A DNA stretch of 64,000 nucleotides from Cyanobacteriota bacterium (GTDB taxonomy: Bacteria > Cyanobacteriota > Cyanobacteriia > PCC-6307 > Cyanobiaceae): contig JBJOMY010000001.1 of the NCBI GenBank assembly GCA_046052125.1, positions 128,001 through 192,000 on the forward strand. Reading direction: 5' to 3'. Shown piece by piece: positions 17,659-50,619 of the stretch. Under the pieces are notes generated by a model. The model made no database searches. It saw nothing but the letters and a program-made list of their open reading frames with translations, and was not told the DNA's origin. The translations under genes and the position numbers were made by a program. Each line of letters begins with the position of its first letter. Positions within the stretch are counted from its first letter, which is position 1.

Positions 17659-18363
17659 ATGCCAGCGGCCGCGATGGGCCCAGCACTGTTGTTCGTGATC
17701 ACGAGCGAATCGGCTCTGCCGGATCACCCCTGCAGCCTTGAGGAGCTGCGTGATGCACAACAACTCGGGCCCCATTCGGGGTTTGCACTGCGCTTGTTCA
17801 GCTCTGGTCCGCAGGCCATGGAGGAGTTATCCACCTTCCCGCTGGATGGACGACTGACCGGCGCCGGGAAGCGGATGCCGGATGGTCCTCAACTGATCTG
17901 TGACGCGTTGCTGCCTCGCTACGAGCCGGAGCGCCATTGGCTCGGCGTCTACGCCGCGGATTCAGTCGATGCATCGACCTTCACCTGCCTTGATCGCTTT
18001 GCCCTCAAGGACGCCAACAATGAGACCTGCTGGTTTTATCCCACCCACGACGGCACCTTTCTGAGCTGGGAGCGGGATCTCCAACTCGCCCTACAGCCTG
18101 GATCTGTTGTTGATCCTTCACTCGAGCTGCTGAGCGCGCCTTACGAGCGCGGGCGCATCTCCCTGCTCTGGAGCCTGCTGAAAGACGACGACAGCCTCAC
18201 CAGCGTTGGGATCACCTATGGCGGGCAACGGTTGGAATGGCAACCGCAGATCCTTAAGGCCGAACCGCAAGCCGCCTGGAGCTGCTTTCAGGTGGATAGC
18301 TCAAGCACACCCAGCCTTGTGGTGGCTGCCAGTGAGGTTGTTCGAGAAGCGATCGATCCCTGA
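17659..18363 (+). CDS. Hypothetical protein
   Basis: 234-aa ORF with plausible composition; no family recognised. Confidence 0.65.
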   Translation: MPAAAMGPALLFVITSESALPDHPCSLEELRDAQQLGPHSGFALRLFSSGPQAMEELSTFPLDGRLTGAGKRMPDGPQLICDALLPRYEPERHWLGVYAADSVDASTFTCLDRFALKDANNETCWFYPTHDGTFLSWERDLQLALQPGSVVDPSLELLSAPYERGRISLLWSLLKDDDSLTSVGITYGGQRLEWQPQILKAEPQAAWSCFQVDSSSTPSLVVAASEVVREAIDP

Positions 18364-18580
18364 GTGAAGACGCCCTTGATGAATTCCACCGTGGTTGATC
18401 AGGTGCTCAGGCCTCGACAGGGGCCGATGCTGTGGTTGAATCAATGCACTGCAGAAGATGACACCTGCACGCAGGAGGGGGTCTGAGGAGGCCTCCTTTT
18501 TTGTGTAAAGCAAATCTTCCATGCGATCTAGCGATCATCACCAGCAAGCGTTACGCTCGCAATAGATTTCCACTCACTAC

Positions 18581-18946
18581 ATGCTCACAGGTTCTGAATT
18601 GCTCGCCAAGGTGAAAGACCTCGGCGATGTTTCCAAATCTGATCTGGTGCGCAGCTGCGGCTACGTGAGCACCAAAAAAGATGGTGGCGAACGGCTGAAC
18701 TTCACCGCCTTCTACGAAGCCCTGTTGGAGGCCAAAGGCCTGAGCCTGGGCAATGACGGTGCGGGTCGCGGCAAGGCGGGCCGCAAACTCAGCTATGTGG
18801 CCACCGTGCAAGGCAACGGCAATCTCCTGGTGGGCAAGGCCTACACCGCCATGCTCGATCTCAAGCCTGGCGATGAGTTTGAAATCAAGCTGGGCCGCAA
18901 GCAGGTGCGGCTGATTCCGGTGGGCGGTGTGGACGAAGAGGAGTGA
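18581..18946 (+). CDS. Cyanobacterial AbrB-like transcription factor (cyAbrB)
   Basis: MLTGSELLAKVK, FYEALLEAKG, VQGNGNLLVGKAYT. Confidence 0.93.
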   Translation: MLTGSELLAKVKDLGDVSKSDLVRSCGYVSTKKDGGERLNFTAFYEALLEAKGLSLGNDGAGRGKAGRKLSYVATVQGNGNLLVGKAYTAMLDLKPGDEFEIKLGRKQVRLIPVGGVDEEE

Positions 18947-19739
18947 GGCTGGGCGCTCGATCCGAGTGCTGGCTTCCCGCTGAACCAACCCCTGCTGAGG
19001 CCGGGGTTTTTTAGTGGCGCAGAGTATTCGTCACTGGATCAGCAACAGGAACGCGCCTTCAACACAGAGAGTGTGAGCCGCGAGATCGAGACCATCACCG
19101 ATCTGGGATCAGAGAAACGCGCTGCATTGCTGCGTGTTTGCAGCAGTACGGGAACAGGAACCTCCAAGCACTCATCACTGAGCGCCAATCGGCGTAACTT
19201 GAAATTGAGGGAAGGGACGGGAGCAAACCCAACCTTCACCCCCAACAGAGTCCGGCCAGGGATCACCCGAGCCGGTGCGCACAACGGAGGTGCGCTCGAT
19301 ATGCGTGAAACCCACGGTGAACTCGGTGATGTGGCGAGCACATCACCCCGTAGCCGCAACAGCGATACGCCACTGCGAATCCCACGATTGTTGATCCCCC
19401 GGGCTGCATAACCCGGGCCGCGATCACCACTGATGAGGTCAAGCCCCGAGCATCTCTCACCAGAGCCGTGATCGTTCTCCTTGCCTGCCAGGCCCCAGAC
19501 AGGTGAATCGTGATTCCACCAGACACCCGACCAAGTCGACCGCAAAATGCCAGCGGTGAACCTTGCAACCGGTGCTAAGGCGCCCCACACGGGGCGCCTT
19601 GTTTTGAGGCGGCTTCGGCCTGATGGTGCTCAATCGGCTGTGTCGCGATCCCAACGATCAGCCGCCATGATCGGCATTCGAAAGGTCTGATTTTGCTTTC
19701 ACCCCATCACCCGCGTGGCAACACCTTCTGGAAATCGCG

Positions 19740-20504
19740 ATGAGCAGTGAACCCGCTCAGCCGCTGAAGGTGCTGATCGCCGACGACGAGGACAACATTC
19801 GCCGGGTCCTGGAGACCCGCCTCAAGTTGCATGGCTATGCAGTGGCTGGAGCGGAGAACGGTGTGAAGGCGATGGAGCTCTTCCATGCCTTTCGCCCCGA
19901 CCTCGCGGTGCTCGACGTGATGATGCCCGGGCTGGATGGCTTTGCGGTGACGGAGCAGATCCGCGCTCAGTCGGAGATCCCGATCATCCTGCTAACGGCG
20001 CTGAGCGATTTAGCCAATCGAATCACCGGTCTGCAGCTCGGCGCCGATGACTACATGGTGAAGCCCTTCAGCCCCAAGGAGTTGGAGGCGAGGATCCGCA
20101 GCGTCATGCGCCGCGTCGAGCATGGATCAGGGCACAGCCCTGGGGCACCTGGCCTGGGCGGCGTGTTGCAGGTGGGTGAGCTCTCGATCGATTTCAACCG
20201 CCGGGCGGTGTTCAGGGGTGAGGCGCGCGTTCGCCTCACGGGCATGGAATTCAGCATGCTCGAACTGCTGGTGCGCCGTTCAGGCGAAGCGATTTCGCGC
20301 CTGGAGTTGCTGGAGGCCGTGTGGGGCTACCGGCCGGAACGTGCCAGCGACAGCCGGGTGGTGGATGTGCACGTGTCCCGCTTACGTTCCAAGCTGGAGG
20401 ACGACGCCGATCAACCGAGCCTGATCCTCACGGCCCGGGGAACCGGCTACATGTTTGCGCGGCTATCAGCCCCCGAAGAGAAAAGGGTGGGCTTCACGCC
20501 TTAA
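19740..20504 (+). CDS. OmpR-family response regulator, RpaB-like paralog
   Basis: IRRVLETRL, LDVMMP, KPFSPKELEARIRSV, RLTGMEFS, VVDVHVSRLR, LILTARGTGY. Confidence 0.9.
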   Translation: MSSEPAQPLKVLIADDEDNIRRVLETRLKLHGYAVAGAENGVKAMELFHAFRPDLAVLDVMMPGLDGFAVTEQIRAQSEIPIILLTALSDLANRITGLQLGADDYMVKPFSPKELEARIRSVMRRVEHGSGHSPGAPGLGGVLQVGELSIDFNRRAVFRGEARVRLTGMEFSMLELLVRRSGEAISRLELLEAVWGYRPERASDSRVVDVHVSRLRSKLEDDADQPSLILTARGTGYMFARLSAPEEKRVGFTP

Positions 20505-20772
20505 AGCATTCGCGGGATTGAAGTCTCACGCTCAGACCTGAGAGACCTTTGCAATTCGTAAGACGTTCCTCGAGGCGGGCTCCGGCTTGCCTTTTTTTAT
20601 GTCCAATCGAGGAGTCGGTCGCCCAACGGAGCGGCAGAACCTTTAGACAATCTGTATCTCCAAACGGCGCTCACCTTGCTGAAGAGTTTGTCGTTGCTCG
20701 CGGGGTGTTCACTCCTCGGCTTCGCCTTGATCCAGCTCACTTTCACCTGGCTCACCTGAGGCGCCCAAGGCC

Positions 20773-21924
20773 TCAGTAATAGAACGCACCATCGGTTGGA
20801 TTGCGCCGCACGGCAGCACAGCGCGTCGCGATCCGCCACAGGGCTTGATGAATGGGCGTGGCGTCGTAGCGAATCAGATCCGGGTAGCGCTGCCGCAGCA
20901 GGGCAGTGCCCCGCCAGGCGTTGTAGTGGGGGATGCGTGCATTGATGTGATGGCACACGTGGGTGGAGCCGATGCCGTGGTGCAGCCAATTGAGCAGCGG
21001 TCCGTAGGGGCGGTCAACGGTTTGGAGGGCACCTTTGGCCCAGGTCCATTGGTCGGATGCGAAATGCGGAATAGTCAGATCGGAGTGCTGCAGCCAGGTG
21101 TAGGTGATCAACCAGACATTCACCACGAGGTAGGGGAGCCCATACACGCACAGCACCCTCGCCAGTGAGAACTGAACAGCGAGAGCTCCGAGCACCAGCA
21201 GAACAACCAGAATGCCGACGTTTGAGCGCAGCATCCGGCGGCGGAATGCTCTCGGGAAGAGGGATCGTTTTCCCCTGTCGTAGAAGTCGCCGTTCCAGAA
21301 GTGGGAGGTTGGGCGGCCGTAGTCTTCACCACCGGTGGCGCCAACGAAGAGATAAAGAGGCCAGCCCAGGATCAGGTGGCTGAAGAGCGACACCCAACCA
21401 AACAAGCGCAAGCCAAGGCGCTGGCGCAACTGCTCCGTGATCCGCCCAGAAACCGAATCCTCTCTTGGCGGTACGTGCGTTTCACCCTGTTCGAGGTGAT
21501 TGCAATGGGCGTGGTGCACCGCATGGCTGCGGGCCCAGCTGTGATATGGAACCAGCATCAGGCTGTGGAGCATGAAGCCCACACAGCTCTCGATCCGGCG
21601 GTTCGGGTGAAAGGCGCGGTGGCCACATTCGTGCGCAATCACCCAACAGCCCATGGCCACAGTGCCTGTGATCACTCCATAGAGAAGCCACAGCGGCGCA
21701 GCCCACAACTCGAGCGGAATCGGAGTGCCGGCGGCATAGGCCATCAGCGACAACCCCAAAGACATGCCAAGGCTTCCCCAAGCCTTGAGCGGGTTGAACT
21801 GCGTTAACGCATGGGGCAGAGCCTGCAGCAGCTCTGCTTTGTTGGGATAGATGCGTTGGCTGGTGGGTTGAGGGGGACTGATCGGGCGCGCGATGAGGCA
21901 GACAGGAGGGGTCAAACGCTGCAC
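20773..21924 (-). CDS. Delta-12-type fatty acid desaturase
   Basis: Three His boxes HECGH, HAVHH, HVCHH; start uncertain. Confidence 0.88.
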   Translation of the reverse strand: MQRLTPPVCLIARPISPPQPTSQRIYPNKAELLQALPHALTQFNPLKAWGSLGMSLGLSLMAYAAGTPIPLELWAAPLWLLYGVITGTVAMGCWVIAHECGHRAFHPNRRIESCVGFMLHSLMLVPYHSWARSHAVHHAHCNHLEQGETHVPPREDSVSGRITEQLRQRLGLRLFGWVSLFSHLILGWPLYLFVGATGGEDYGRPTSHFWNGDFYDRGKRSLFPRAFRRRMLRSNVGILVVLLVLGALAVQFSLARVLCVYGLPYLVVNVWLITYTWLQHSDLTIPHFASDQWTWAKGALQTVDRPYGPLLNWLHHGIGSTHVCHHINARIPHYNAWRGTALLRQRYPDLIRYDATPIHQALWRIATRCAAVRRNPTDGAFYY

Positions 21925-22280
21925 CGCATCAAGTCAACCTTTCAGTTTTAGGAATGCTTAAGACTCTATCGGTCGCTGGGCTGAGGCGGCTCGTGTGAAG
22001 CGCTTGAAGACCCAGACCGGCGAGTGCCTGGTTGGGTTCATCACTAGAAGTGATCAATGATCTGGAGGTTCAAGGCAGCCAGCCATTCCAGATCCACGGG
22101 CAGGAGCAGGATGTGCCTGCGTTGCTCAACGCAAGGTTGTATTGGAAAGGGATTAAGGCTTCACCTCAGCGCCCTGATTCATCCAGCTGTGAGCCCCATC
22201 AAGACGGCGCTTGAACGGATCACGAACGACGCCGATCACCGTGCGTTTGCCTCGCCGATCTGCGTGGCTGACCGCCCGGG

Positions 22281-22379
22281 CAGCTCTACCAGCGACTGCT
22301 ACAGATCAGTGACCAGCAGGGCCGCTCCCTCTCGAATCTGGCCTGCCACTGGCTCGAGAGGCAGTCAGCCGACGGCTAA
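22281..22379 (+). pseudogene. Fragment paralogous to the small RHH-like gene at 35177-35371
   Basis: Reads QLYQRLLQISDQQGRSLSNLACHWLERQS; in-frame TGA at 22269-22271 upstream. Confidence 0.65.
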
Positions 22380-22454
22380 GCACATCCACTCTTGTGGTGG
22401 GTGTCCGGGCTGGTTTAGAGCGAACTTGGACCAGCGTTGAACCGGAGGGCTCCA

Positions 22455-22759
22455 TGAGCATCAGGGACGAACGGAGAGCCGAGCCCCGAACCGAGTTGCA
22501 TCGGCTCTGGACGGTCAGCGTTGAATCCGATCGGTTGGGCCAGCGCCGCGCTCAGGTGCTGGATTACAGCGCATCAGGGATCAAGCTCGCTCTTGATGGA
22601 GTCTGCGATCTACGCCCTGGGGCCTCGCTGGAGATTCACTACCCCGGCACGGGCTGGTCGTATCAAGCAACGATCGCCTGGACAAAGCAAGACGACACAG
22701 AGACCATCCTTGGCGCTCGGCTTTTAGAAGCGGCTTGTTCGTTGCGTCAGGCCTGTTAG
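22455..22759 (+). CDS. PilZ domain protein
   Basis: RRAEPR (RxxxR) and DYSASG (DxSxxG) motifs. Confidence 0.8.
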
Positions 22760-22833
22760 CGGCCAGCGAGGCCTGTCTTTGCTGGCGATTCGGCCAGTAC
22801 AACAGTGAATCGTTTGAACGTGGAGTGGTCTGG

Positions 22834-22863
22834 ACAGTTTCGGCCTCAACAGTTTCGGCCTCA
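22834..22863. repeat. 15-bp tandem duplication
   Basis: ACAGTTTCGGCCTCA twice. Confidence 0.9.
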
Positions 22864-23440
22864 ACCGCCGATGACTGATGGATCACTCACAATCTCGTGA
22901 ATGACGTAACTGACGTGGGCCTCTAGCAATCGGATTGAAAAGCCAGGAGCACAGAATGATGACCATTGCCTCTGAGTAGAACGTTCATTCACTTCTACGA
23001 GTCGGGGGCCACGTTTGCCGCAGCAGCAATGAAGAAGCAGATGGGCTGACCATCGGCAGGTCTGGATGGCCATGGATAGATTATCGATGGTTTACCGCAA
23101 CCCTGGGCGCCACATTGGGAAACTGCGAGTCATGTCTGCATTACTCGCCGCCTGTCGGCCCCCAGGGTCTCTGCACGGTTTGGCAAAAGAGCATGACAGC
23201 AGCAGAAGCTGCGATCCACACCTGTCCGATGTGGGAGAAGCGTCGGCGACCCACGTCAACCGATGAAGTCTTCACACGAAGAAAATGAGCCAATAGTCTG
23301 CGCATCGCAGGGCATTGGCATCATTTGCTGGTTTTTCCGTTTGGTCACCATGCGTTGTTGAATGACACCCATCCCGAACTTAAGCACGAGGCTCAGTATG
23401 GGTTCAGGTTGAAGAACTGAACGTTGCAAACACAACAACC

Positions 23441-23466
23441 AAAAACCCCCGAGCAGCGCCCGAGGG
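23441..23466 (-). terminator. Intrinsic terminator (second copy at 47095-47120)
   Basis: Minus strand CCCTCGGG-cgctg-CTCGGGGG followed by T5. Confidence 0.7.
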
Positions 23467-23873
23467 TCATGGGTCAATCACGAACACTCCAATGGCTTGT
23501 GGTCGTTGAAGCTGCTGGCGTTGGCACCTTGAGCCGAACGTTCCAGGTGTGGGTTGGTTGGTTCTCCTGGGGCACCTGAGGCGGTGCAAACGGAGTGTCG
23601 ATCAGTCAGGCGCACGAGGTGAGAACAAGCTCAAGGGCTGTTCTCTTGCCCGGCTGAACGACCCGCCCACGGTTGGGTGAAGACTGTTGGAGCAGGGGCC
23701 TGCAGTCAGCGATGCTTCTCGATCTGCTGCTCGGGTGGGGTATCAGCCATCGGTGGCGCCTCCCTGGGTTGGTGATCACAGATTCGCTCCGGCGAGCGCG
23801 CTGAGCAATCCGTTTTTTCACGCATTGCCTTGCCCGCAGAACAGGAGCAGCGTGGTTGGTTTGGCCTTGTTGT

Positions 23874-24164
23874 TCAGCGCCAAAGCACCATCCGCGGCGG
23901 CTGTGGTGGCTGCCATTGCGGGGCGCACGGTCTCCAGCCCTCAGCCCTGCATTGCCGCCACAGCTCAACGGCCTTCTCGCGGCTGAGCCGCTGGCGCCGC
24001 TTGAGTAACGGTGCTGTTTGGTCCCTCAGCCACTCACCACTGGTCACCTCCAACTCCTGCTGCGAACGCCGCCAGATCACCGGCTTGAAATGGAGCACCT
24101 TGCGGCCATCACTGAGCCAGGCTTCCGCTGGACGTGCAGATCGAGTTGTCAGCGATGCATCCAC
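23874..24164 (-). CDS. DUF1651-like protein, copy A (N-terminus differs from copy B)
   Basis: AWLSDGRKVLHFKP, PLLKRRQRLSREKAVELW, GWRPCAPQW. Confidence 0.75.
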   Translation of the reverse strand: MDASLTTRSARPAEAWLSDGRKVLHFKPVIWRRSQQELEVTSGEWLRDQTAPLLKRRQRLSREKAVELWRQCRAEGWRPCAPQWQPPQPPRMVLWR

Positions 24165-24242
24165 AGTGATCAGACCAGTGTCATCTCAGATCGACTTGAT
24201 CTCAGCCAAGGCCGAAAGTTGCGCCTGCTGCAAGCACACCAG

Positions 24243-25331
24243 CTACAGGAGCCCTGGGGGCTGGACATGAAACAGTTCAGCAGATGAGAGCGCTCCACCC
24301 GCATCTGCTCCACCAGCGATCAGAACCGTGCCGTTCTGCAACGGTGTGGCGGTGTGGCGATAGCGCGGGGTGTTCATCGACCCAACCTCCTGAAAGGTTT
24401 GGCGGGCGATGTTGTAGATCTCGGCCGAAGCAAGAGGCACCACTCCGTCATAGCCACCGGCCATCAGCATGGTGTTGCGGTTCAGGTTGGTGGCTGTATG
24501 ACGGGCTCTCGCCGCATGCATTGTGCCGGCCTTCAGAAAACGTCCGGCTCCCGTCAGCCATGACCAACCGCTGCGCACGAAGCGTTCGCTGGAACGCTGA
24601 ACATCACCAGTTGCTGTAGCAAAGCCCCCAGCCATCAAGACACTTCCATCTGGCAACAGGCTCGCTGTTGGATAGCGCCTTGGCGTTGACATCTCCGCTG
24701 CAGAGCTAAAGCTGTTCGATTTCGGGTTGAAGAGCTCGGGTGAATTGACAGCCTCACCGTTGTATCCCCCTGCTACCAGAACAGTGCCATCTCGTAGCAA
24801 TGTGGCCGTTGCGTTCCGGCGCGCCGTCTGCATCGAACCCGCCTCCACAAAACGACCGGCCTTGGGTTTGTAGATCTCTGCAGAAGCCAGGGGGGTGCCA
24901 TGGCTTGTGCCTTCATAGCCCCCAGCCACAAGCACTCGTCCATTGCCGAGCAGGGTGACGGTTGGGTTGATCCGAGCCGTGAGCAACGAACCAGTCGGTG
25001 AGAAGGTTCCGGTGATCGGGTCAAACAGCTCCACTGAGGCAAGGGCATTGCCGCTGGCGTCTTGTCCCCCCACCATCAGAATCTTCCCGTTGCGGAGCTG
25101 CGTGGCTTCCGCCGCTACACGAGCTGCGCCCATGGATCCAGTCGGGGTAAACAGACCGGTAAACGGGTCGTAAATCTCAGCCGACGCCAGCGTCGCCAGC
25201 GTTGTGTCGTAGCCCCCAGCGATCAATACATCCCCATTGGCCAGTTCAGTTGCTGTGTGCAACGATCGAGCGCTGCTCATCTCTCCAGTGGGGGTGAAAT
25301 ACCCCTTCCCCGTGGTTGCTGAAGCGGCCAT
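24243..25331 (-). CDS. Kelch-repeat beta-propeller protein
   Basis: About seven repeats of TGxMxxxRxxHTATxLxNGxVLxAGG...SAE(I/L)(Y/F). Confidence 0.92.
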   Translation of the reverse strand: MAASATTGKGYFTPTGEMSSARSLHTATELANGDVLIAGGYDTTLATLASAEIYDPFTGLFTPTGSMGAARVAAEATQLRNGKILMVGGQDASGNALASVELFDPITGTFSPTGSLLTARINPTVTLLGNGRVLVAGGYEGTSHGTPLASAEIYKPKAGRFVEAGSMQTARRNATATLLRDGTVLVAGGYNGEAVNSPELFNPKSNSFSSAAEMSTPRRYPTASLLPDGSVLMAGGFATATGDVQRSSERFVRSGWSWLTGAGRFLKAGTMHAARARHTATNLNRNTMLMAGGYDGVVPLASAEIYNIARQTFQEVGSMNTPRYRHTATPLQNGTVLIAGGADAGGALSSAELFHVQPPGLL

Positions 25332-25448
25332 AGGGGATCAAAGAAGTCGATTGCCTGTATGGGAGCAGGCCACTACGGACTCACCGTAGGTGCCTGATTT
25401 GCTCTGTCATCTGGGCGGGCTGAGTTCCTATCCCTGAATCCAGACATC

Positions 25449-25742
25449 TCAGCCCGCCTCCGGCGCCCAACCCCGCTTGCGGGCCATGTCATCAGTCCAG
25501 CCCTGACAGCGGTTCAACAGGTGATCGCCCTGGGCAATCAGTCCCTGGTGCAGCTGGCAGGTGAGCAAAGGAATGCACTGCGGCCCGGCGTGATGGCGAA
25601 ACCAGTGGCAGGTCATGCAGACCTTGCGGCTACGGCTGGGGCGCAACAGGTCGCCATCGAGATAGGGCCAGGCCTCGCAGTCGCCTGCGGCCTCATCCGC
25701 AGCCGTCATTGAGCGGGCTGACCTTGAACGGGAGAGCGCCAT
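25449..25742 (-). CDS. Small Cys/His-rich putative metal-binding protein, copy A
   Basis: CMTCHWF...C...CQLH...H...C...WAPE; near-identical paralog at 50110-50403. Confidence 0.8.
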   Translation of the reverse strand: MALSRSRSARSMTAADEAAGDCEAWPYLDGDLLRPSRSRKVCMTCHWFRHHAGPQCIPLLTCQLHQGLIAQGDHLLNRCQGWTDDMARKRGWAPEAG

Positions 25743-25759
25743 CACCAAACCCTTGCATG

Positions 25760-25774
25760 CGTACACCCGTACTA
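25760..25774. promoter_or_regulatory. Putative LexA (SOS) box
   Basis: cGTAC-ACCC-GTACTA, 17 nt upstream of the ATG at 25742; fits the cyanobacterial AGTAC-N4-GTACT consensus. Confidence 0.7.
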
Positions 25775-26126
25775 GCAGGGATTGGGTGGGTTGGCGCGGT
25801 CGCTGAGCAGCGCCTTTCACAAAAGAACCCCGGGCCATGGGCGCCCGGGGCCTTTGAGCCAGCGGGACCTTGGCTGCCCGCTTCTCCATGGTTATGGCTC
25901 ACTATTGATGCCAAGCGCAAGCGACGAGCGGTCTCGGTTGGGCGTGTTGCTGAAGGCTCCACCTCCGTTTGTTGTTGCCGGCGCTGATCGGATCGCTCCT
26001 TCGTGCAGCCATGGCTGTGGGATTCAGCTGGCTGCATGGGTTATCAGAGCTCTATCTGCAGAGGTGGCGCTGAGGCTCTCCTCCGCGAGTAGCCAGTCCT
26101 AGGTTGAATCCATTGGCAGGTCAGCG

Positions 26127-26510
26127 ATGACAAAGAAACAAACCTGGTTGGTGATTGGACTTTCAGCGGTCCTCTCAGCTGCAGCAACTCCTCTGATGGC
26201 CAGTGCCGCGCCTGGCAACCGCGTGGGCTCTTGTTCAGAAGCAACGGTGGTCGAGCGTCATTACGGCCCAACCCAGCCCTCTGGCTCCGGCGCCGCTGTG
26301 AAAGAGGTGTACCTGAGCCTCAGTGATGGGGAACATCTCGACGGTCCAGCCGAGCTGGGCACCACCGGCTTCTTCTGGGACTACACCCCGGGCAACAAGG
26401 TGGGTGTCTGTGTGGAAGCCCTCCACCCCAGCCGCCTGCGCGTCGATGACCGCATGACGGGCGCCAGTTTTGTGGCACATCCGAGCTCTGCCGCACCGGC
26501 AGGTAGCTGA
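26127..26510 (+). CDS. Hypothetical secreted protein
   Basis: N-terminal signal peptide, two Cys. Confidence 0.7.
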   Translation: MTKKQTWLVIGLSAVLSAAATPLMASAAPGNRVGSCSEATVVERHYGPTQPSGSGAAVKEVYLSLSDGEHLDGPAELGTTGFFWDYTPGNKVGVCVEALHPSRLRVDDRMTGASFVAHPSSAAPAGS

Positions 26511-26611
26511 TCCGGTCGCTGCGCCACCAGCCCAGCCTGATCTAGCGGCTGCGGACGCTAGTTCTTGACAGCTGCATCACCTGAGGGCTGCGGCGATGCT
26601 CCTGTTGCTGG

Positions 26612-27040
26612 CTACGACGCGGAGCAGCTCGCCTGCCGTGCCTTGATCAGCGCATCGGCCTGGCGAGCCAGACGGGCGCCGTCAGTGGTGAGAAAAGGAA
26701 AGCCGGCGCTGTTCCGGTAGAGCACAGGACGGGTGGCTGTGAGCTGCATCTCGGCCTGCTCGCGGCAGAGGATGTAGGCGCCGTAATCGAGCTGTTCTGG
26801 CGGCTCCGCGCTCGAGTCGTTGGTCTTGCCGTCTGCTGTGGCGAGAGCCTCCAGCCGCGGGCAGACCCTTTGGCGCTCAGCGTGCACCAAGACCAACTCA
26901 GCTGCCATGGCACGGCGCGCCAGCTGATCACGCTGCTCGTGCAGTTGCCGGCAATCCACGGCCCAGCTGGGGTCAACGAATCCAAACGCCAGTGGGAGCG
27001 CCAGCGCCCTGCGAACACATGTATACATTCGCTGTGACAT
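26612..27040 (-). CDS. Hypothetical secreted protein
   Basis: Hydrophobic N-region then DCRQLHEQRDQLAR; start uncertain. Confidence 0.55.
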   Translation of the reverse strand: MSQRMYTCVRRALALPLAFGFVDPSWAVDCRQLHEQRDQLARRAMAAELVLVHAERQRVCPRLEALATADGKTNDSSAEPPEQLDYGAYILCREQAEMQLTATRPVLYRNSAGFPFLTTDGARLARQADALIKARQASCSAS

Positions 27041-27053
27041 CAGCGATCGCTCA

Positions 27054-27245
27054 GTGGCCACCAAGCGTTGCACCTCAAGCCGGGACGGCAAGGTGTTGCT
27101 CTCCTGCTGGATCACGCCCGAGTTGCGGATGGAGCTCGATCGGGTCTGGGCAGCCAAGGGATACCGCCCCCACGGCCGAACCCAACAGGGCATGAACGAG
27201 ATGATCGCCGCCTACCTGGCGGCTCAGGCGGAGGGCTGGCGATGA
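27054..27245 (+). CDS. Small hypothetical protein coupled to the CDF transporter
   Basis: Stop overlaps the next start (ATGA). Confidence 0.55.
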   Translation: MATKRCTSSRDGKVLLSCWITPELRMELDRVWAAKGYRPHGRTQQGMNEMIAAYLAAQAEGWR

Positions 27246-28135
27246 GCGCTGGACACGACCATCACCACGGCCACGACCATGGGCAGCGCACAGCCGGTGC
27301 AGCCTTCCGCTTGAGCATCGCGCTCAACAGCGGCCTCACCGCTCTGCAGCTGGCGATTGGTTTTGGCTTTGGCTCCCTGGCCCTGATCGGGGATGCCCTC
27401 CACAACCTCGGCGATGTGATCGGCCTGGTGCTCGGCTGGGGCGCTGAACGCCTCAGCCTGCGGCCGCCAAAGGGCCGTTTCACCTATGGCTACGGGCGCA
27501 GCACCCAGATGGCCTCGCTGATCAACGGGCTGTTGATCTTCTCCGCCGGAGTTGTGGTGGTGGTGGAAGCCATTCAACGGCTTGCCAACCCCGTGCCCCT
27601 GATTGCCGGGCCTGTGGTCTGGGCTGCTGCTGCGGGCATCGTGATCAACTTGCTCTCAGCTCGGTTGTTCGGGCACGACCACCACCACGACCTGAACCAA
27701 CGGGCGGCGGTGCTGCATCTGCTCACGGATGCAGCGGTTTCGGTGGCGGTGTTAATCAGCGCAGTGGTTGTTGGCCTCACCGGCTGGCTCTGGCTCGATG
27801 CCCTCACTGCGATCGGTGTCGGCGCCGCAGTGATCTGGAGCGCAACGGGACTGCTGCGTGAGGCGATTGCGCTCAATCTCGATGCGGCACCACGCGGTGT
27901 GGATCTGGGCGCTGTTGAATCCCTGCTCCAACAACTACCTGGCGTGGCAGCTGTGGAGGAGCTGCATGTCTGGGGGATCAGTACTTCGAGAACGGCGCTG
28001 ACCGCTCACCTACAGATCAACTCGGATCAGTTGAGCAGCCATGGGTGGAGCCGGGAACAGCTGCTGACAGAGGCGAGGGAGCACCTGGCACGGCTCGGCA
28101 TTCGCAAGTGCACGATCGAGCTCACAGCGATTTGA
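27242..28135 (+). CDS. Cation diffusion facilitator (CzcD/ZitB-like)
   Basis: His-rich N-terminus, SLALIGDALHNLGD, HLLTD, LHVW. Confidence 0.93.
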   Translation: MSAGHDHHHGHDHGQRTAGAAFRLSIALNSGLTALQLAIGFGFGSLALIGDALHNLGDVIGLVLGWGAERLSLRPPKGRFTYGYGRSTQMASLINGLLIFSAGVVVVVEAIQRLANPVPLIAGPVVWAAAAGIVINLLSARLFGHDHHHDLNQRAAVLHLLTDAAVSVAVLISAVVVGLTGWLWLDALTAIGVGAAVIWSATGLLREAIALNLDAAPRGVDLGAVESLLQQLPGVAAVEELHVWGISTSRTALTAHLQINSDQLSSHGWSREQLLTEAREHLARLGIRKCTIELTAI

Positions 28136-28220
28136 GTTGCCTCCTGAATGCCCCCATTTGGGGGCATCAGTCCGGTATCCGCGGGAGGAAACTGAACCCA
28201 ACGAGAGATCGGAGGGCCCG

Positions 28221-28403
28221 ATGACGCACTCCACCAAGACCACCACGATTCCTGCTGTCGACGCCAGTGCCTGCTTGGGCCGCACCTGCCTGAAGTGGCG
28301 GGCCGATGGCGAGCTCACCGAACTCGACCTCAGCCTTGTGCTGGCACGCCTGGCTTTGGTCGATCAGCAACTAAGCGACCCAGCTCCGCAGCACTCCGCC
28401 TGA
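28221..28403 (+). CDS. Small hypothetical protein
   Basis: GGAGG RBS; ACLGRTCLKWRADGEL. Confidence 0.6.
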   Translation: MTHSTKTTTIPAVDASACLGRTCLKWRADGELTELDLSLVLARLALVDQQLSDPAPQHSA

Positions 28404-28789
28404 TTCGCGCTGATACCGGGTATCTGCAGGGTGAGTGGGACGGATCGATTGCGTCGCACACAAGTGAATGCTGAATTGGCCGAACGGATTCACCAATAAC
28501 GATTCCAGCCAGTTCTGCTCGCAGGCAGTTTCACAGGGCTGATCGCTCTGCCATCATTGCCCAGCACACAAAACAAGTTGCACGCCAGCAAGACCGAGCA
28601 AAGCGGTCATGGCAAAAAGAGAGGCCGAACGCAGCGCAGCTCGCACGTTGTCTCTCCGGAGAGCCGTTGATTGTTGATCTTGTGCCAGTACAGCGCTACC
28701 ACCAAATGGCGGCATTGACCTTGCGCGGGTGCAAGCTGGGGTCCACCGCAAGAGCCAGAAGTGCCTGGAAGCAGATTTACGACAGATGC

Positions 28790-29060
28790 TCAGCTAATAA
28801 ATGACCGAGGCCAAAACCGACGCTTCAGCGGGCACAGTCCGATACATTCCCCAGCATCTGGATCGACATGGTCGATCGCCAGCTTGGCCTGAGCTGTTGT
28901 AACGCCGGGGAAGATCTCCACAAATTCATGCGATGAAATGCTGCCCCGGAGGTTCTCAAACAGCGCCGTTTCCGGAACACGCGTGTCGCGGAACAGCCAA
29001 ACGCCGCTGAGGCGCTTGGGATCTCGTTCGACAGCAGGCCAATCAACCCAGTTGATCGAG
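28790..29060 (-). pseudogene. Degenerate DUF433 antitoxin gene
   Basis: Reads WVDWPAVERDPKRLSGVWLFRDTRVPETALFENL...EIFPGV, paralogous to 31636-31875; no start codon, no partner toxin. Confidence 0.7.
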
Positions 29061-29083
29061 GTTGAGCAACCGTTGCTGGGTTT

Positions 29084-29482
29084 TCAGGCCCAGTTTTCAT
29101 AGAGCAAACCATCGACCCGCTCAAATTCCCGCAGGTTGTTGCTGACCAGAGTGAGCCCTTCACTGCGCGCCTGGGCAGCGATGTGCAGGTCATTCACACC
29201 AATCGGTGTTCGGCGTCGCTTGAGGGCACTGAGGATCTGCCCGTAATGCTGAGCTGCTTTGGCTCCATAATCGAGCACATCGAGCCGGCTGCAGAAATCC
29301 TCCACAACAGAAAGTGTGCGTTGTGGTTGCGAACATTTCTCAGCCCCGTGCAGTAGTTCTCCCAATGTGATGGCAGAGATCGCGAGGTGAGAGGCATTCT
29401 CGTTGAAGCGATCCAGGAGTGCCTCAGGCCTGCGCTTAATCACGTCAATGTAGATATTGGTATCCAGCAGATAACTCAACAT
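29084..29482 (-). CDS. vapC: PIN-domain toxin VapC
   Basis: YLLDTN, ELLHG, IGVNDLHIAA, VSNNLREF. Confidence 0.9.
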   Translation of the reverse strand: MLSYLLDTNIYIDVIKRRPEALLDRFNENASHLAISAITLGELLHGAEKCSQPQRTLSVVEDFCSRLDVLDYGAKAAQHYGQILSALKRRRTPIGVNDLHIAAQARSEGLTLVSNNLREFERVDGLLYENWA

Positions 29483-29490
29483 CACTACAC

Positions 29491-29727
29491 TCAGAACGAT
29501 TCGCGCTCGGGCTGCTCCTGGCTGGATCGTTCGACCATGAAGTCATCTGGTACCGCCGGGCTGTCATGGAAAAAGCTGTCCCAGCGTTGGCCAACGGAAG
29601 AGATGATCCGCTCCTGGCCGCAGGCACGCACCTCAACAGATTTGACGGAATCAGGTAGGCGCAGGTGAGCAGGGATCCGTACCGCCTGGCTGCGATTGCT
29701 CAGAAACAGCTTGGTGAAGCTGGGCAC
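29491..29727 (-). CDS. vapB: AbrB-type antitoxin VapB
   Basis: KLFLSNRSQAVRIP, WDSFF, ERESF. Confidence 0.9.
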   Translation of the reverse strand: MPSFTKLFLSNRSQAVRIPAHLRLPDSVKSVEVRACGQERIISSVGQRWDSFFHDSPAVPDDFMVERSSQEQPERESF

Positions 29728-29988
29728 AGCAAACCCCTCAAGGGATATACCGGCCGTCTATCCCGCTCAGGTGCGAACGGCTCGTGCCTCCAGTGCATCG
29801 AGATCATCAGCTTTCAGCAGTGGGCACGCTGGGAGGGTCCACGCCGCTTCCATGGCACGCGCCGCCGCGGCTGTGTGGTGAGCCGAGCGCTAGTGCGGAC
29901 CATCAGGGGAGGGGATCGAGGCCGGCGGGTGTGAGCGGATCTCCAGAGGGATGACGACAGTGCAGCCAGAAGCCGCGATGATGGGCAG

Positions 29989-30228
29989 ATGGTTCCGGCA
30001 TCGCCACCAACTCTGGACGAGCTTCGCCGGTTGGCTCCGGCGCTGCACAGCCTCACGGCGGCTCATGGTGCCCTAGAGCTGCAGGTGTTCGGCTCAGTGG
30101 TCTGGGGTTCCGCGCGGCCGGGCAGTGACCTGGATCTGCTGAGCGTTCCCGTAGACCTGCTGACCCGCCGAGGTCTGCGGGCTGAGCTGCGTCAACGGAT
30201 TGAAGAGGAGGCCATCCCTCTTGCATGA
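29989..30228 (+). pseudogene. Minimal nucleotidyltransferase (MNT antitoxin-like), apparently internally shortened
   Basis: VFGS...SDLDLL joins directly to VPVDL; no HEPN partner seen. Confidence 0.6.
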
Positions 30229-30289
30229 GCACCTGCTTGGTGCGGCACCAACGGTAGGATTTCGTGCAGAGAGAATTCGATGTACAGCC

Positions 30290-30571
30290 ATGGCTGCAGC
30301 GGTCCATCCACCTGCTCTCAAGCTTGTTGGCAGCAACGGGCAGATCTCACTGGGTAAGCAATACGCCGGCCGCCACGTGCTGGTGGAAGAGAGCGAGCCG
30401 GGTGTCTGGATTGTGCGCACCGCCACCGTGATTCCCGACAATGAGCGCTGGCTCCATGAACCAGGAGCAGCCGCAGACCTTCAGGCTGCGATGAGCTGGT
30501 CTGCAAGCCATCCACCCACCGATGCCGAGGTTGTAGACACCCTCAAGCGCCTGGGTGATGACGCAGCCTGA
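30290..30571 (+). CDS. Putative antitoxin (AbrB-like N-terminus)
   Basis: KLVGSNGQISLGK; overlaps the downstream small gene. Confidence 0.65.
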   Translation: MAAAVHPPALKLVGSNGQISLGKQYAGRHVLVEESEPGVWIVRTATVIPDNERWLHEPGAAADLQAAMSWSASHPPTDAEVVDTLKRLGDDAA

Positions 30572-30878
30572 GCCAACGATCAGGTTGGATCTGAACAACC
30601 CGGTGTTTCAGGAGCAATTGCTGACGCTGCAGAAGCCTGAGCGCCATGCAGCACTCGACACCCTCAACAAAATCCGGCAGCTGACCTGGAATCAGCTCTA
30701 CCGAGATCCAGGGCTCAAGTGGGAAAAGATCACGAGCGTCAGACCGCCCGTTGGGATCGACGCTGTGTATTCCCTGAGGATCAGCCGATCACGTCGCGCT
30801 ACGGCCCACCGTGATGGCGAGTTCATGCGGTTGCTGACCATCGCACCGGATCACGACGCTACCTACGGGAAGAAATAA
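30558..30878 (+). CDS. Putative RelE/ParE-like toxin
   Basis: GLKWEKI, YSLRISRSRRA, C-terminal HDATY; TA-like overlapping pair. Confidence 0.6.
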   Translation: MTQPEPTIRLDLNNPVFQEQLLTLQKPERHAALDTLNKIRQLTWNQLYRDPGLKWEKITSVRPPVGIDAVYSLRISRSRRATAHRDGEFMRLLTIAPDHDATYGKK

Positions 30879-30945
30879 GCGCACCACCAGGTGTTACATC
30901 AGCACCCCGCCAGAAGCACCCCACCAGCTCAAGACGCACCGCAAG

Positions 30946-47077: not shown

Positions 47078-47197
47078 GCAATCACCGCCCAACCAAAACC
47101 CCCCGAGCAGAGCCCGAGGGTGATGGATCAATCACGCTGCAAGTCCATGGACTGAAGCGGCTGGCGTTGGCGCCTGGGGTCACGTCACCTCAGCGAG

Positions 47198-48289
47198 CTA
47201 AGGCCCATCCCTGGTGAAACAACGACTCACAAAGGGGGATGTCATGGCTCGCAACAGGGCGCTGTAGCTGAGCTGGTAGCGCTGTTCATCACCTACCTGT
47301 GGCTTCACGCCCAGGCATCCCACGACCAGATGATCACTGGAGGCGCCGCGGATAACGACACCATTTGGTGGGCTTAACCCTTGTGGATCAACATCTTGTT
47401 CACCCAGCGCTAGCAGCACTCGATATTCAGAACCTGGCGCGGTTGAGGTTGGCTGTGGCTCTGGCTTTGGGATTGCTGAGGCAAAGCTTGTGCGTTGGCG
47501 CTCTCCCCAGGGTTGGCTTGGTTTCAACTTGGCCTCGATCACTTCAGCCACCAACGTGATGGCATTGGTGAATAGGCCAGGGATAGCTGTGCGCCTCAGG
47601 GGCTCTCGGCCGAGCAGTAGGGCCTCCCCCAAGCGCAAGTGATTGAGGCGCCCGGGCTCTCCTCCGGCGGCCAACCAGGGCAAATTTGCAGAATTCCCGC
47701 CAGAGCACCAAGGCAAACGCACACCAAAGCGACGCTCCAAGGCGTTCGTAAGCCGTGAGAGCTCAGCCATGTTCAGCGCATCGGGGACAACCCCGTGCTG
47801 ACAGCCCAGATTGGCGCCGATTCCCATCAAGCGCAGATTGGGGAGGGCCAGGGTTTGTTGCGCCAGCGCCTCGAGATCCATTGCCAGGATTCCTTCACGC
47901 AAGTCGCCCAGCTCCACCATCAACAACACCCCATGGCAAATTCCTTGCCGCTGGGCCGCTGCAGACAATGCCCGCAACACACTCAGTTCGCTGTTGCAGC
48001 TGATGGCTGCGTGGGTAACCACGCGTTCAACCTGAGTGAGCATTGGGGAGCGAATCAAGAGCATGGGTACGCCAACCCCAGCCGCTGCAAGGGCTTCGAT
48101 GCTCTCGATTCGGGATTCACCGATCGAGGCCACCCCGGCATCCACCCAGGTGTGCACGATTTCGGGAAGGCCCAGCGTCGCCTTGCTCACACCCGTCACG
48201 GCAATCCCCTGCAGGGCCAGACGTCCCACAAGGGTTTTGGCGTTGTGGTGCAGTCGCCCGAGGTGGATCTCGAGCCGCGGTGCACTCAC
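47198..48289 (-). CDS. PLP-dependent alanine/ornithine racemase family protein
   Basis: VTGVSKA (PLP Lys), ELGDLREG, SGGNS, HLRLGE, GASSDH. Confidence 0.88.
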   Translation of the reverse strand: MSAPRLEIHLGRLHHNAKTLVGRLALQGIAVTGVSKATLGLPEIVHTWVDAGVASIGESRIESIEALAAAGVGVPMLLIRSPMLTQVERVVTHAAISCNSELSVLRALSAAAQRQGICHGVLLMVELGDLREGILAMDLEALAQQTLALPNLRLMGIGANLGCQHGVVPDALNMAELSRLTNALERRFGVRLPWCSGGNSANLPWLAAGGEPGRLNHLRLGEALLLGREPLRRTAIPGLFTNAITLVAEVIEAKLKPSQPWGERQRTSFASAIPKPEPQPTSTAPGSEYRVLLALGEQDVDPQGLSPPNGVVIRGASSDHLVVGCLGVKPQVGDEQRYQLSYSALLRAMTSPFVSRCFTRDGP

Positions 48290-49431
48290 GTGCTCAGGAG
48301 TCGTTCAACGCTGAGTTCCGGGAAGGCACGCACCACCATCGCCACCAGGCTTGATCCGGGGCGGCTGACTGCATCGGTGACCGGAATGTCGAGCTCGGCC
48401 TCGTAGAGGGCGATGGCAGCCGTGAGCTCAGCATCATTCATCCCTTCATGGTTGATGGTCAGACCGATCACACGGGTGGGCGCAAAGGCCTCAATGAGCC
48501 GAATTTCACTGGCTGGCGAGGGCATCGGCAGAAAGGGAAAATCACTGAGACAGCGTCGAGCCGGCGCATGCTGCAGGATCACGGCCTGCGGCTGGCAGCC
48601 GCGCAGGATGAAACTTGAGGAGAGATAGGCGGGGTGGCTGAGGGCACCCTGGCCTTCGATCACGATCACGTCGGGCTGCTCACTCTCGTAGGCCTCCACA
48701 ACCGCCGCCTCAACTTCGCCAGAGCAAAACTGCGATGGGATGGCATCCAGGGGAACGCCAAAGCGCCCACCCTGGATCAGCCCTGTCTGGCCTGTGTTCA
48801 CAAGCACCGCCTTGATGCCGTGGGCCTGAAGCGCCTGCACCAGCAGGGTTGCAGTGGTTCGTTTCCCGATCGCTCCATCAGTACCCAGCACAGCGATGCG
48901 CAGGCAGCGCGCCCGGCTGATTGATCCATCGAACAGCTTCAGATCCTTGAGGGGGGCCGGTCGTCGCACATCGCGGATCGTGACCTGATGGCGGGCAGCC
49001 ACTGCCAAGAATTCCGGATCGTCAGTCAGAAATTCGCGCATGCCACTCACGAGATTGAGGCCTGCGGCCATCGCATGTCGCAACACCTGCCGGTCCTCCA
49101 CACGGAAGAGACCATCGGCAGGGGCCATCCCGTAAATGAAGGTGTCTGGAACGGCGCCGGGCAGATCTTTGCCTTCTTCCAGGCTACAGACAATTGGAAT
49201 GCCCCTGAATACGCCATCAAGCACCATGCCGGCATCCATACCGGCGCACTCACTGTCAATCACAGCGCTGATTGTGTAGGCCTCACAGTGACGAACCAAC
49301 CCGTGAGCTGTTTTACCGTCGGGACCAGCGAAATGACCTTCGCAGTAAACAATGGCCGTTGATCGCACGGTTGGAATCAACCGGTGCATGGCGGCGGAAT
49401 TCAGATCAATGATCTGAGTTGGAAATGACAA
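48286..49431 (-). CDS. DUF1611 family P-loop protein
   Basis: GKTAHGL, GTDGAIGKRTT, TGQTG, IEGQGALSHP; start uncertain. Confidence 0.9.
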   Translation of the reverse strand: MSFPTQIIDLNSAAMHRLIPTVRSTAIVYCEGHFAGPDGKTAHGLVRHCEAYTISAVIDSECAGMDAGMVLDGVFRGIPIVCSLEEGKDLPGAVPDTFIYGMAPADGLFRVEDRQVLRHAMAAGLNLVSGMREFLTDDPEFLAVAARHQVTIRDVRRPAPLKDLKLFDGSISRARCLRIAVLGTDGAIGKRTTATLLVQALQAHGIKAVLVNTGQTGLIQGGRFGVPLDAIPSQFCSGEVEAAVVEAYESEQPDVIVIEGQGALSHPAYLSSSFILRGCQPQAVILQHAPARRCLSDFPFLPMPSPASEIRLIEAFAPTRVIGLTINHEGMNDAELTAAIALYEAELDIPVTDAVSRPGSSLVAMVVRAFPELSVERLLST

Positions 49432-49797
49432 AAAAGCCAGGCCAATCCCGCAGCACAGTTGTGGCGGCTGGGTGACATGGGTGCCTTCACTCTAGGCAGG
49501 GTTGGCCACAGAAGGGGGTGTCGATCAGTCAGGCGCACGAGGTGAGAACAAGCTGAAGGGCTGATCTCTTGCCCCGCTGAACGACCCCGCCCACGGTTGA
49601 GTGAAGACTGTTGGAGCAGGGGCCTGCAGTCAGCGGTGCTTCTAGATCTGCTGCTGGGGTGGGGTATCTGCCATGGGTGGCGCCTCCCTGGGTTGGTGAT
49701 CACAGATTCGCTCCGGCCAGTGCGCTGAGCAATCCGTTTTTTCACGCATTGCCTTGCCCGCAGAACAGGAGCAGCGTGGTTGGTTTGGCCTTGTTGT

Positions 49798-50106
49798 TCA
49801 GCGCCAAAGCACCATCCGCGGGGGCTGGGGTGGATGCCATTGCGGGGCGCAGGGTGCCCAGCCGTCAGCCCTGCGTTGACGCCACAACTCAATGGCCTTC
49901 TCACGGCTGAGTCGTTGGCGCCGCTTGAGCAACGGCGCGGTTTGGTCGCTCAGCCACTCACCACTGGTGACCTCGAGCTCCTGCTGCGAACGTCTCCAGA
50001 TCACCGGCTTGAAATGGAGCACCTGGCGGCCGTCACTCAACCAGGCCTCAGCCGGGTTGGAAGGGATTCGCTGCCCTTGATCTTGTTGGGCATTGGGCAC
50101 CCACAC
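49798..50106 (-). CDS. DUF1651-like protein, copy B
   Basis: AWLSDGRQVLHFKP, PLLKRRQRLSREKAIELW. Confidence 0.78.
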   Translation of the reverse strand: MWVPNAQQDQGQRIPSNPAEAWLSDGRQVLHFKPVIWRRSQQELEVTSGEWLSDQTAPLLKRRQRLSREKAIELWRQRRADGWAPCAPQWHPPQPPRMVLWR

Positions 50107-50109
50107 GCG

Positions 50110-50403
50110 TCAGCCCACCTCCGGCGCCCAACCCCGCTGGCGGGTCATGTCGTCGGTCCAGCCCTGGCAGCGGCTCAGGAGGTGATCACCATGAGCAATC
50201 AGGCCCTGATGCAGCTGGCAAGTGAGCAGCGGAATGCACTGCGCTCCGGCGTGGTGCCTGAACCAATGGCAGGTCATGCAGACCTTGCGACTACGACTGG
50301 CTACCAGCACGTCGCCATCGAGGTAAGGCCAGCCCTCGCAGTCGGCTGCGGCCTCAACCGCAGCCGTCACTGAGCGGACTGACCTTGGACGGGAGAGCGC
50401 CAT
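50110..50403 (-). CDS. Small Cys/His-rich putative metal-binding protein, copy B
   Basis: CMTCHWF...CQLH...WAPE; same length as copy A. Confidence 0.8.
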   Translation of the reverse strand: MALSRPRSVRSVTAAVEAAADCEGWPYLDGDVLVASRSRKVCMTCHWFRHHAGAQCIPLLTCQLHQGLIAHGDHLLSRCQGWTDDMTRQRGWAPEVG

Positions 50404-50420
50404 CACCAAACTCCTGCAGT

Positions 50421-50435
50421 CGTACACCTGTACTA
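50421..50435. promoter_or_regulatory. Putative LexA (SOS) box
   Basis: cGTAC-ACCT-GTACTA (minus strand TAGTACAGGTGTACG). Confidence 0.75.
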
Positions 50436-50619
50436 GCAGGGATTGGGTGAGTTGGCTCGGTCGCTGAGCAGCGCCTTTCACAAAAGAACCCCGGGCCATG
50501 GGCGCCCGGGGCCTTTGAGCCAGCGGGTCCTTGGCTGCCCGCTTCTCCACGGTCATGGCTTAGGCGAATGCTCCATGGCAAGGGGTGTCGGAACCCTTTG
50601 AGGCCTCACGCCAACTCCT

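Follow-up and report, generated by a model that had tools for sequence, protein, structure and literature searches.

Two diverged copies of a probable b3-DUF1651-Yfr103 module in a freshwater-type picocyanobacterium, one of them framing an operon

Hou et al. (2016, PMC5069720) report that in marine Synechococcus the most abundant transcript is the RNA Yfr103. According to the sections of that paper available to us, Synechococcus CC9605 has seven paralogous non-coding RNAs of this family, 290-328 nucleotides (nt) long, which together account for 55.2% of the organism's own reads in a start-site-enriched library; homologues are present in other marine Synechococcus and in low-light Prochlorococcus, and the RNA is described as having a conserved structure, an imperfect palindrome at -29 to -58 and a function termed "enigmatic". 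The subject of the present study is a stretch of 64,000 nt from a bacterium of the family Cyanobiaceae (assembly GCA_046052125.1; positions 128001-192000 of contig 1, in a genome of 2.64 Mb that was searched as a whole), hereafter called the window, in which a first-pass annotation had recognised a duplicated "scaffold" with two different cargos. In our view this scaffold is probably a paralogous three-part module on the minus strand, composed of a small gene that we call b3, a gene of the DUF1651 family and a Yfr103 RNA gene. Most of these parts, including the Yfr103 RNA gene, are known; new are the lineage, the genomic setting and the fact that one copy frames an operon.

Further described systems resemble parts of this arrangement. 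Genes of the DUF1651 family (PF07864) of marine cyanobacteria are induced on phage infection (Fedida & Lindell 2017, PMC5490813). Like the DUF1651 genes discussed here, they encode small proteins of the same Pfam family and occur in multiple copies in variable regions, but the phage induction was described for marine strains, and the available sections of that paper do not mention a linkage to Yfr103. In the attC cassettes of integrons, co-oriented cargo genes are likewise each followed by a conserved structured element; here, however, this element is a gene for an expressed RNA of about 340 nt that has its own promoter, the junctions vary, the copies are scattered instead of forming an array, and no recombinase family, IntI included, was found among the 26 open reading frames (ORFs) scanned around both window copies. 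Highly expressed RNA genes (tRNA, tmRNA, small RNA) also edge variable blocks in genomic islands, for example in the tycheposons of Prochlorococcus. The window differs from these islands in that neither an integrase nor a direct repeat of a partial gene was seen, and in that the RNA gene of one copy is interrupted mid-gene and not duplicated at its 3' end. The terms 'PRE1' and 'repeat element' are absent from the tycheposon preprint (bioRxiv 10.1101/2020.12.28.424599).

Comparison of the window with itself by blastn yielded three pairs of homologous blocks: block 1 (23436-23529 versus 47090-47175, 78.7% identity over 94 nt, E = 4e-15), block 2 (23589-24131 versus 49512-50055, 91.9% over 544 nt, E = 0) and block 3 (25449-25899 versus 50110-50560, 88.9% over 451 nt, E = 2e-170). 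All pairs are plus/plus and their order is identical in copy A (23436-25899) and copy B (47090-50560), so that the three co-linear same-strand blocks of the first-pass annotation are recovered, at 79-92% identity. The gap between blocks 1 and 2 is 59 nt in copy A versus 2336 nt in copy B, and that between blocks 2 and 3 is 1317 nt in copy A versus 54 nt in copy B, in agreement with the cargos described there (about 65 bp in A and a 2.3-kb DUF1611-racemase operon in B; 1.3 kb with a Kelch gene in A). The genes of both copies are on the minus strand throughout, and each copy is closed by an intrinsic terminator (23468-23444 in A, 47120-47100 in B); the cargos are indeed co-oriented with the blocks and lie upstream of this conserved terminator. 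An assembly artefact had been judged improbable, rightly, as the copies diverge by 8-21%. The two copies are separated by 24 kb and are therefore not in tandem.

The blocks correspond to the module as follows. Block 3 is b3; block 2 is the DUF1651 gene minus its first ~11 codons, together with the promoter and the 5' half of Yfr103; and block 1 comprises the 3' end of Yfr103 and the terminator. Block 2 thus begins within DUF1651 and runs into about 285 nt of non-coding DNA, which is better conserved (95% between A and B). The "conserved terminator" of the first-pass annotation is the Yfr103 terminator, and its "65 bp" of copy A are the middle of the Yfr103 gene.

The identity of the non-coding unit was established by way of the marine paralogues. 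Table S2 of PMC5069720 lists their starts on NC_007516.1 (520624-, 523498-, 745088+, 946997+, 1038850+, 1437033+ and 2396316-), and in one of the genomes searched (G305) all seven main matches begin exactly at these coordinates. The copies of this genome match a profile built from the window's family at E values of 8e-38 and 3.6e-36 and align with copy A. By homology to the seven mapped paralogues, the non-coding unit of the window is Yfr103. A palindrome, GGCAATGCG...GGATTGC, is located at -56 to -32 from the start-equivalent base in both copies; this and the transferred starts, 23773 in A and 49697 in B, imply that a Yfr103 gene, equipped with its own promoter, forms the end of the "scaffold". 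From the predicted start, itself transferred by alignment, to the terminator, copy A measures about 338 nt versus the 290-328 nt given in PMC5069720. Rfam models detected only a tRNA-Met in the whole window at gathering thresholds, and only noise in 23350-24000 at E values of up to 10 (best E 1.4). The 15-nt core motif was not met in the literature searched, and the name Yfr103 was met in PMC5069720 alone.

Two other interpretations of the non-coding DNA were rejected. Coding capacity of the ~400-nt unit, the mini-ORF described below apart, was dropped because the copies differ by indels whose lengths are not divisible by three, and because a run of 50 nt shows no variation at any position. 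The GGCAAT...ATTGCC hairpin was abandoned as an RNA structure, as the mapped starts place it upstream of the transcript.

The likeness to marine Yfr103, as far as the available sections of PMC5069720 describe it, comprises the homology to the mapped paralogues, the multiple copies, a predicted length of about 300 nt, the palindrome at about -30 to -58, an extreme abundance in environmental RNA and a conserved secondary structure, that of the paper being known by description. The differences are that the present organism is a freshwater-type picocyanobacterium, that Yfr103 is coupled to b3 and DUF1651, that one copy is split by an operon, and that a conserved Shine-Dalgarno motif and a mini-ORF of 13-14 codons are present in a transcript that the paper terms non-coding.

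For the analysis of the RNA structure, 47 Yfr103 copies from freshwater-type, marine and low-GC genomes were aligned and folded with RNAalifold, and the pairs were counted. In the resulting fold 88.1% of the cells are paired, versus 30-42% when the partners are slid by one to three columns; 23 pairs have changes on both sides, and none of 500 shuffles reached the observed covariation score. A closing helix, GAAGC...GCUUC, spans about 210 nt and is 99.6% paired, with replacement of AU by GC in five sequences and of CG by UA in one.

The 5' end of Yfr103 contains a Shine-Dalgarno motif and an ATG in 135 of the 162 distinct sequence windows with the family anchor. The motif D[TD]PP is found near the start of this mini-ORF in 105 and a peptide of 13-14 amino acids in 104 of the 162; a typical peptide of the marine copies is MTADTPPEQIAEAD, and copy A encodes MADTPPEQQIEKHR. 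The mini-ORF thus has the form M(T)ADTPPEQ..., with 13-14 codons and a di-proline, and synonymous changes are seen in its codons for Asp, Thr and Pro. In one Thr codon the third base covaries with the sequence flanking the Shine-Dalgarno motif (pair 145:165: GC 16, AU 12, CG 12). Taken together, the synonymous variation and this covariation suggest that both an RNA helix and translation may constrain the stretch, which extends over 23706-23764(-) in A and 49642-49688(-) in B. The available sections of PMC5069720 make no mention of a mini-ORF, and the terms 'peptide' and 'small protein' yield nothing on Yfr103 there.

Contigs of four metatranscriptome runs from four studies of freshwater or riverine habitats were placed on 23300-26100 at an identity of at least 88%. 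The summed word depth over 23488-23769 was 15,000-35,000 (run X15), 234-692 (X16), 74,000-89,000 (X17) and 322,000-480,000 (X19; maximum 480,017), and it was at most 6 over the Kelch, DUF1651 and b3 genes, except for 21-34 in two b3 bins of X16. Yfr103 is among the most abundant transcripts in all four runs. The contigs cover about 23508-23719, which is the part inside the closing helix; the 5' end and the tail vary between copies, and the lack of contig cover there is therefore uninformative about the transcript ends.

In copy A, the longest ORF of b3 encompasses 146 amino acids (25449..25889, -), the likely true start lying near 25742, which would result in a protein of about 97 amino acids. 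It is followed by the gene for a Kelch-repeat protein of 362 amino acids (24243..25331, -; Kelch_1/4/6, E 1e-34 to 1e-39) and by the DUF1651 gene of 96 amino acids (23874..24164, -; PF07864, E 5.6e-11). The imperfect palindrome GGCAAT...ATTGC (23805..23829, -; conserved in A2/A3) lies upstream of the Yfr103 RNA gene, which extends from the predicted start to the end of the terminator T-run (23436..23773, -) and includes the mini-ORF (23706..23750, -) behind the Shine-Dalgarno motif GGGAGG (23764-23759) as well as the intrinsic terminator (23444..23468, -).

Copy B consists of a b3 paralogue with an ORF of 148 amino acids (50110..50556, -), a DUF1651 gene of 102 amino acids (49798..50106, -; PF07864, E 2.7e-11) and a Yfr103 gene in two parts. 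The DUF1651 proteins of both window copies score 43-44 bits against a gathering cut-off of 22. The 5' part of Yfr103 (49512..49753, -; palindrome 49753-49729, predicted start 49697, mini-ORF 49674-49642) contains about 185 nt of RNA, is cut after the internal hairpin and is 95.1% identical to copy A, and the last ~86 nt (47090..47175, -) contain the 3' strands of the closing helices and the terminator (47120-47100). The 2.33-kb cassette between them (47186..49519, -) carries a DUF1611 gene (48286-49431, -) and a gene for a pyridoxal-phosphate (PLP) racemase (47198-48289, -). The proteins belong to the broad Pfam families DUF1611 and Ala_racemase_N, and the racemase is of the ornithine-racemase type; in NCBIfam they score below the equivalog cut-offs (DgcN, 151 bits versus 480; Orr, 290 versus 480).

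Additional copies are dispersed over the genome, which contains three full modules in total (A, B and C). In copy C (contig 3, 43790-45191) the three blocks are contiguous and uninterrupted. In copy D (contig 1, ~732.9-735.9 kb) block 3 is followed by genes for a ChrR-cupin protein and an SBF transporter, which stand where DUF1651 would be, and then by the non-coding part of block 2 and by block 1. Copy E (contig 4, ~331.5 kb) is a solo Yfr103 between the genes for a GDT1 transporter and the orange carotenoid protein (OCP), and copy F is a 3' fragment of Yfr103. There are also three further b3 copies, with or without DUF1651 and all without Yfr103. Yfr103 itself is present as seven full-length genes, one split gene and one fragment. 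A divergent subtype, in which the closing helix is GGAGC...GCUCC and the sequence ahead of the core differs, has three copies (contig 1, 367541-367808(-) and 638836-639095(-); contig 3, 98049-98322(+)). The first-pass annotation had proposed that two related elements accreted in tandem; this does not fit the at least 11 dispersed full or partial copies, nor the occurrence of the family in 22 of 24 other genomes of the genus.

In these 22 genomes the ~400-nt non-coding unit has up to 10 matches per genome (10 in G008), and it was found in none of 16 genomes from other families of the class. Within the family, 168 of 301 genomes, from 34 of 64 genera, have its core, and the 22-nt core string was met in 88 stretches, including Synechococcus WH7803 and Prochlorococcus MIT 0707 and MIT 0603. 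Exact copies of this string also occur in metagenome-assembled genomes labelled Salipiger, Flavobacteriia and proteobacterium (loci L087, L103, L125, L127, L146 and L163), which probably contain wrongly binned picocyanobacterial contigs. The contiguous order b3-DUF1651-Yfr103 is found in copy C and at eight loci in relatives, and this uninterrupted module is the common form. In none of the marine loci examined does Yfr103 adjoin b3 and DUF1651; the coupling of the three genes characterises this genus together with its near relatives.

Elsewhere, various accessory genes stand ahead of Yfr103 on the same strand: a sodium:alanine symporter, a heavy-metal ATPase, a multicopper oxidase with DUF305, ZnuA with a gene for 324-330 amino acids, SBF and chromate transporters, a P450 with YkuD, and NUDIX, DoxX and PhzF. 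One region of G008 (contig 1, ~275.9-314.1 kb; L047-L049) contains five Yfr103 copies within 38 kb, in both orientations and amid metal-homeostasis genes. The neighbours there and in G271 (L083) include a P-type ATPase with MerR, a multicopper oxidase and DUF305, and in L083 an RND pump; one weak integrase-like ORF is present (E 2.9e-5, below the cut-off).

How were the two window copies altered? The Kelch gene of copy A has taken the place of the spacer that follows the b3 stop codon and of the first ~11 codons of DUF1651, which differ because the homology to copies B and C begins only at 24131. The same order b3-Kelch-DUF1651 is found in G021 (L186), with 81% protein identity. The cassette of copy B stands in place of about 61 nt from the middle of Yfr103, a segment between its internal hairpin and the 3' strands of the closing helices, and only a few bases (microhomology) are shared at each of the two junctions. 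The cassette (47186-49519) is 89.9% identical over 2334 nt to a stretch of G008 (L050:3736-6069). There, an intact Yfr103, preceded by b3 and DUF1651, lies 1.6 kb upstream of the stretch; the position inside the RNA gene in copy B is therefore derived. Copy A would thus have gained the Kelch gene at the expense of the b3-DUF1651 spacer and the start of DUF1651, and copy B would have gained the DUF1611-racemase genes by illegitimate joining at the level of microhomology, which destroyed that copy of Yfr103. We infer insertion rather than loss as the direction of these events because nine uninterrupted modules exist.

The Yfr103 RNA of copy B is broken by the cassette. The cassette lies mid-gene, and the operon is therefore positioned between the Yfr103 promoter and terminator. 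From the Yfr103 start to the terminator a single terminator-like site is found, a weak stem of five pairs inside DUF1611, versus 2.0 such sites expected from shuffles. The DUF1611-racemase operon is thus probably transcribed from the Yfr103 promoter, and would now stand behind the promoter of the RNA that is the most abundant transcript in marine relatives. The "expression slot" of the first-pass annotation is compatible with copy B to this extent, with an operon between promoter and terminator and no convincing terminator in between, though its use for expression is a matter of prediction.

It should be noted that several points weigh against the reading proposed here. G305 was taken as the genome of PMC5069720 on the coincidence of coordinates, although an exact 47-nt string of one of its Yfr103 copies had no match in the collection of named genomes, and the starts in A and B are two mapped marine starts transferred via the alignment. 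The transcript depth stems from environmental metatranscriptomes and not from the strain itself, it sums paralogues and relatives, and the contigs reveal neither ends nor strand. The cassette of copy B also contains its native 88 nt of upstream DNA, and it may have a promoter of its own. Lastly, no pair of a filled and an empty site was found: the flanks of locus A are non-syntenic in the 21 relatives searched, in which the flanking genes (desaturase, cation efflux) are on different contigs or far apart.

The copies have also exchanged parts with one another. In its 5' half, the Yfr103 of A resembles that of B (95.1% identity) more than that of C (85.8%), whereas at its 3' end it resembles that of C (95.7%) more than that of B (78.7%). 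This mosaic indicates recombination or gene conversion with a breakpoint inside Yfr103, and recombination among the paralogous modules is accordingly supported at the level of sequence; the copies would swap segments by homologous recombination or gene conversion. Direct pairs of Yfr103 bracket an OCP-CrtW-FRP cluster in G203 (where the copies are 100% identical over 318 nt), G344 and G160, and ZnuA with the gene for 324-330 amino acids in G008, G007 and G021; other direct pairs were found in G236, G314, G305 and G085. The bracketing loci were picked for containing Yfr103, so that their frequency has no control. The flanks of the G203 OCP locus are 36-40 kb apart in other genomes of its genus, which characterises it as a variable region.

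The exchange of cassettes by homology has to be considered as a wider explanation: cassettes between direct Yfr103 copies would loop out and re-enter any other copy by homologous recombination, with no dedicated enzyme, and the multi-copy Yfr103, in this genus also b3 and DUF1651, would serve as portable homology that makes the module a general landing pad. The direct pairs around 2-7 kb of accessory genes at the loci examined and the mosaic breakpoint would be expected under this scheme. However, identical flanking copies are equally explicable by gene conversion, the bracketing rate suffers from the selection of loci just mentioned, an empty site was found neither for locus A in 21 relatives nor for the G203 OCP locus in its genus, and the insert of copy B itself was joined without homology. 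Exchange of this kind is therefore possible, but doubtful as an account of the two window copies. A dedicated cassette system, in which the flanks are recognition sites of an integron- or tycheposon-like site-specific recombination that swaps cargo at two slots, would explain why A, B and D carry different cargo between the same blocks, why this cargo is co-oriented with the blocks and why the insert of A and that of D both have the b3 stop codon as their left border; a tRNA-Met gene (54263-54336, -) is located 3.7 kb from copy B. But borders at gene ends are also what selection spares after random joining, the presumed recognition site is a gene for an expressed RNA and has a promoter of its own, and the junctions of copy B share few bases only. 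The junctions between Yfr103 and foreign DNA are at about 1-10, 45, 155 and 174 of the 5' part and at 23, 51 and 60 of the 3' part; they vary from copy to copy, in place of the fixed insertion positions that the first-pass annotation had expected, and that annotation had itself named such variation as telling against it. The flanks that it had taken for dedicated recombination slots are ordinary genes, namely b3, DUF1651 and the Yfr103 RNA gene, and the scan of 26 ORFs around the two copies detected no recombinase, integrase or transposase. The idea of a dedicated slot mechanism is therefore unsupported, and we regard it as quite improbable.

The modules could also have arisen by differential loss, if an ancestral b3-Kelch-DUF1651-Yfr103 unit with the DUF1611-racemase genes had been duplicated and each copy had lost a different part. 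The recurrence of b3-Kelch-DUF1651 in G021 and of the DUF1611-racemase genes near a b3-DUF1651-Yfr103 module in G008 agrees with such a history. The nine uninterrupted modules and the derived position of the copy B cassette speak against it, and so does the rarity of the cargo: of 44 other genomes from the genus, only four have the Kelch gene and one has a close DUF1611 orthologue, the rest having a paralogue of 31-37% identity that is also encoded on contig 5 of the genome under study. Differential loss is thus highly improbable. The probability that the similarity is due to chance or to an assembly artefact is negligible in view of E values of 0 to 4e-15, differences of 8-21% between the copies and the presence of the family in 168 of the 301 genomes searched. 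The reading that we prefer remains a dispersed b3-DUF1651-Yfr103 module, two copies of which were probably altered by insertions.

The b3 protein has no family match in Pfam, NCBIfam or the Atlas. It has 465 homologues, mostly of about 95 amino acids and picocyanobacterial, and fused long forms are rare (two longer proteins). The invariant pattern CxxCH...H...C...C...H...C suggests metal binding. Structure prediction with AlphaFold2 from 38 sequences reached a mean predicted local distance difference test (pLDDT) score of 50.4. The homologues of about 95 amino acids are named "galactose oxidase" in NCBI and UniRef, yet they are devoid of a Kelch or galactose-oxidase domain; the label is probably wrong, and it may have spread from a neighbouring Kelch gene such as that of copy A.

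Apart from the module, the window contains a direct repeat of 94 nt with 86% identity (22275-22368 and 35267-35360, the first copy at the end of ORF 22057-22440) and two adjacent paralogous genes for 353 and 358 amino acids that are 67% identical at the DNA level (9564-10467 and 10768-11674). The region 5001-7000 has a G+C content of 0.42-0.44 versus about 0.62 elsewhere and two minus-strand ORFs (4971-5897 and 5866-6723), and looks foreign. At 41253-41406 a 43-nt tandem repeat (41253-41295 and 41322-41364, 91%) is combined with a self-complementary stretch of 65 nt (41342-41406).

It is tempting to generalise that Yfr103 genes are a common landing pad and expression platform for accessory cassettes in picocyanobacterial islands, and that the RNA is perhaps not purely non-coding; in this breadth the proposal is rather unlikely. 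If it applied, near-identical Yfr103 copies would supply the homology for the gain, loss and shuffling of cassettes, the strong promoter and the terminator could be captured by cargo, as in copy B, and the di-proline of the mini-ORF could stall ribosomes.

The Yfr103 family reaches freshwater-type picocyanobacteria and is equally dominant in the four freshwater and riverine metatranscriptomes, and a recurrent 400-nt repeat that is missing from Rfam is thereby explained for annotation. In the lineage described here the RNA gene is coupled to two small genes, one of them from a phage-induced family, and its copies border accessory genes for OCP photoprotection and for transporters of zinc, copper and other ions. 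Copy B represents a natural case of an operon placed behind the Yfr103 promoter. Translation of the Yfr103 mini-ORF, if true, would bear on the role of the most abundant picocyanobacterial transcript.

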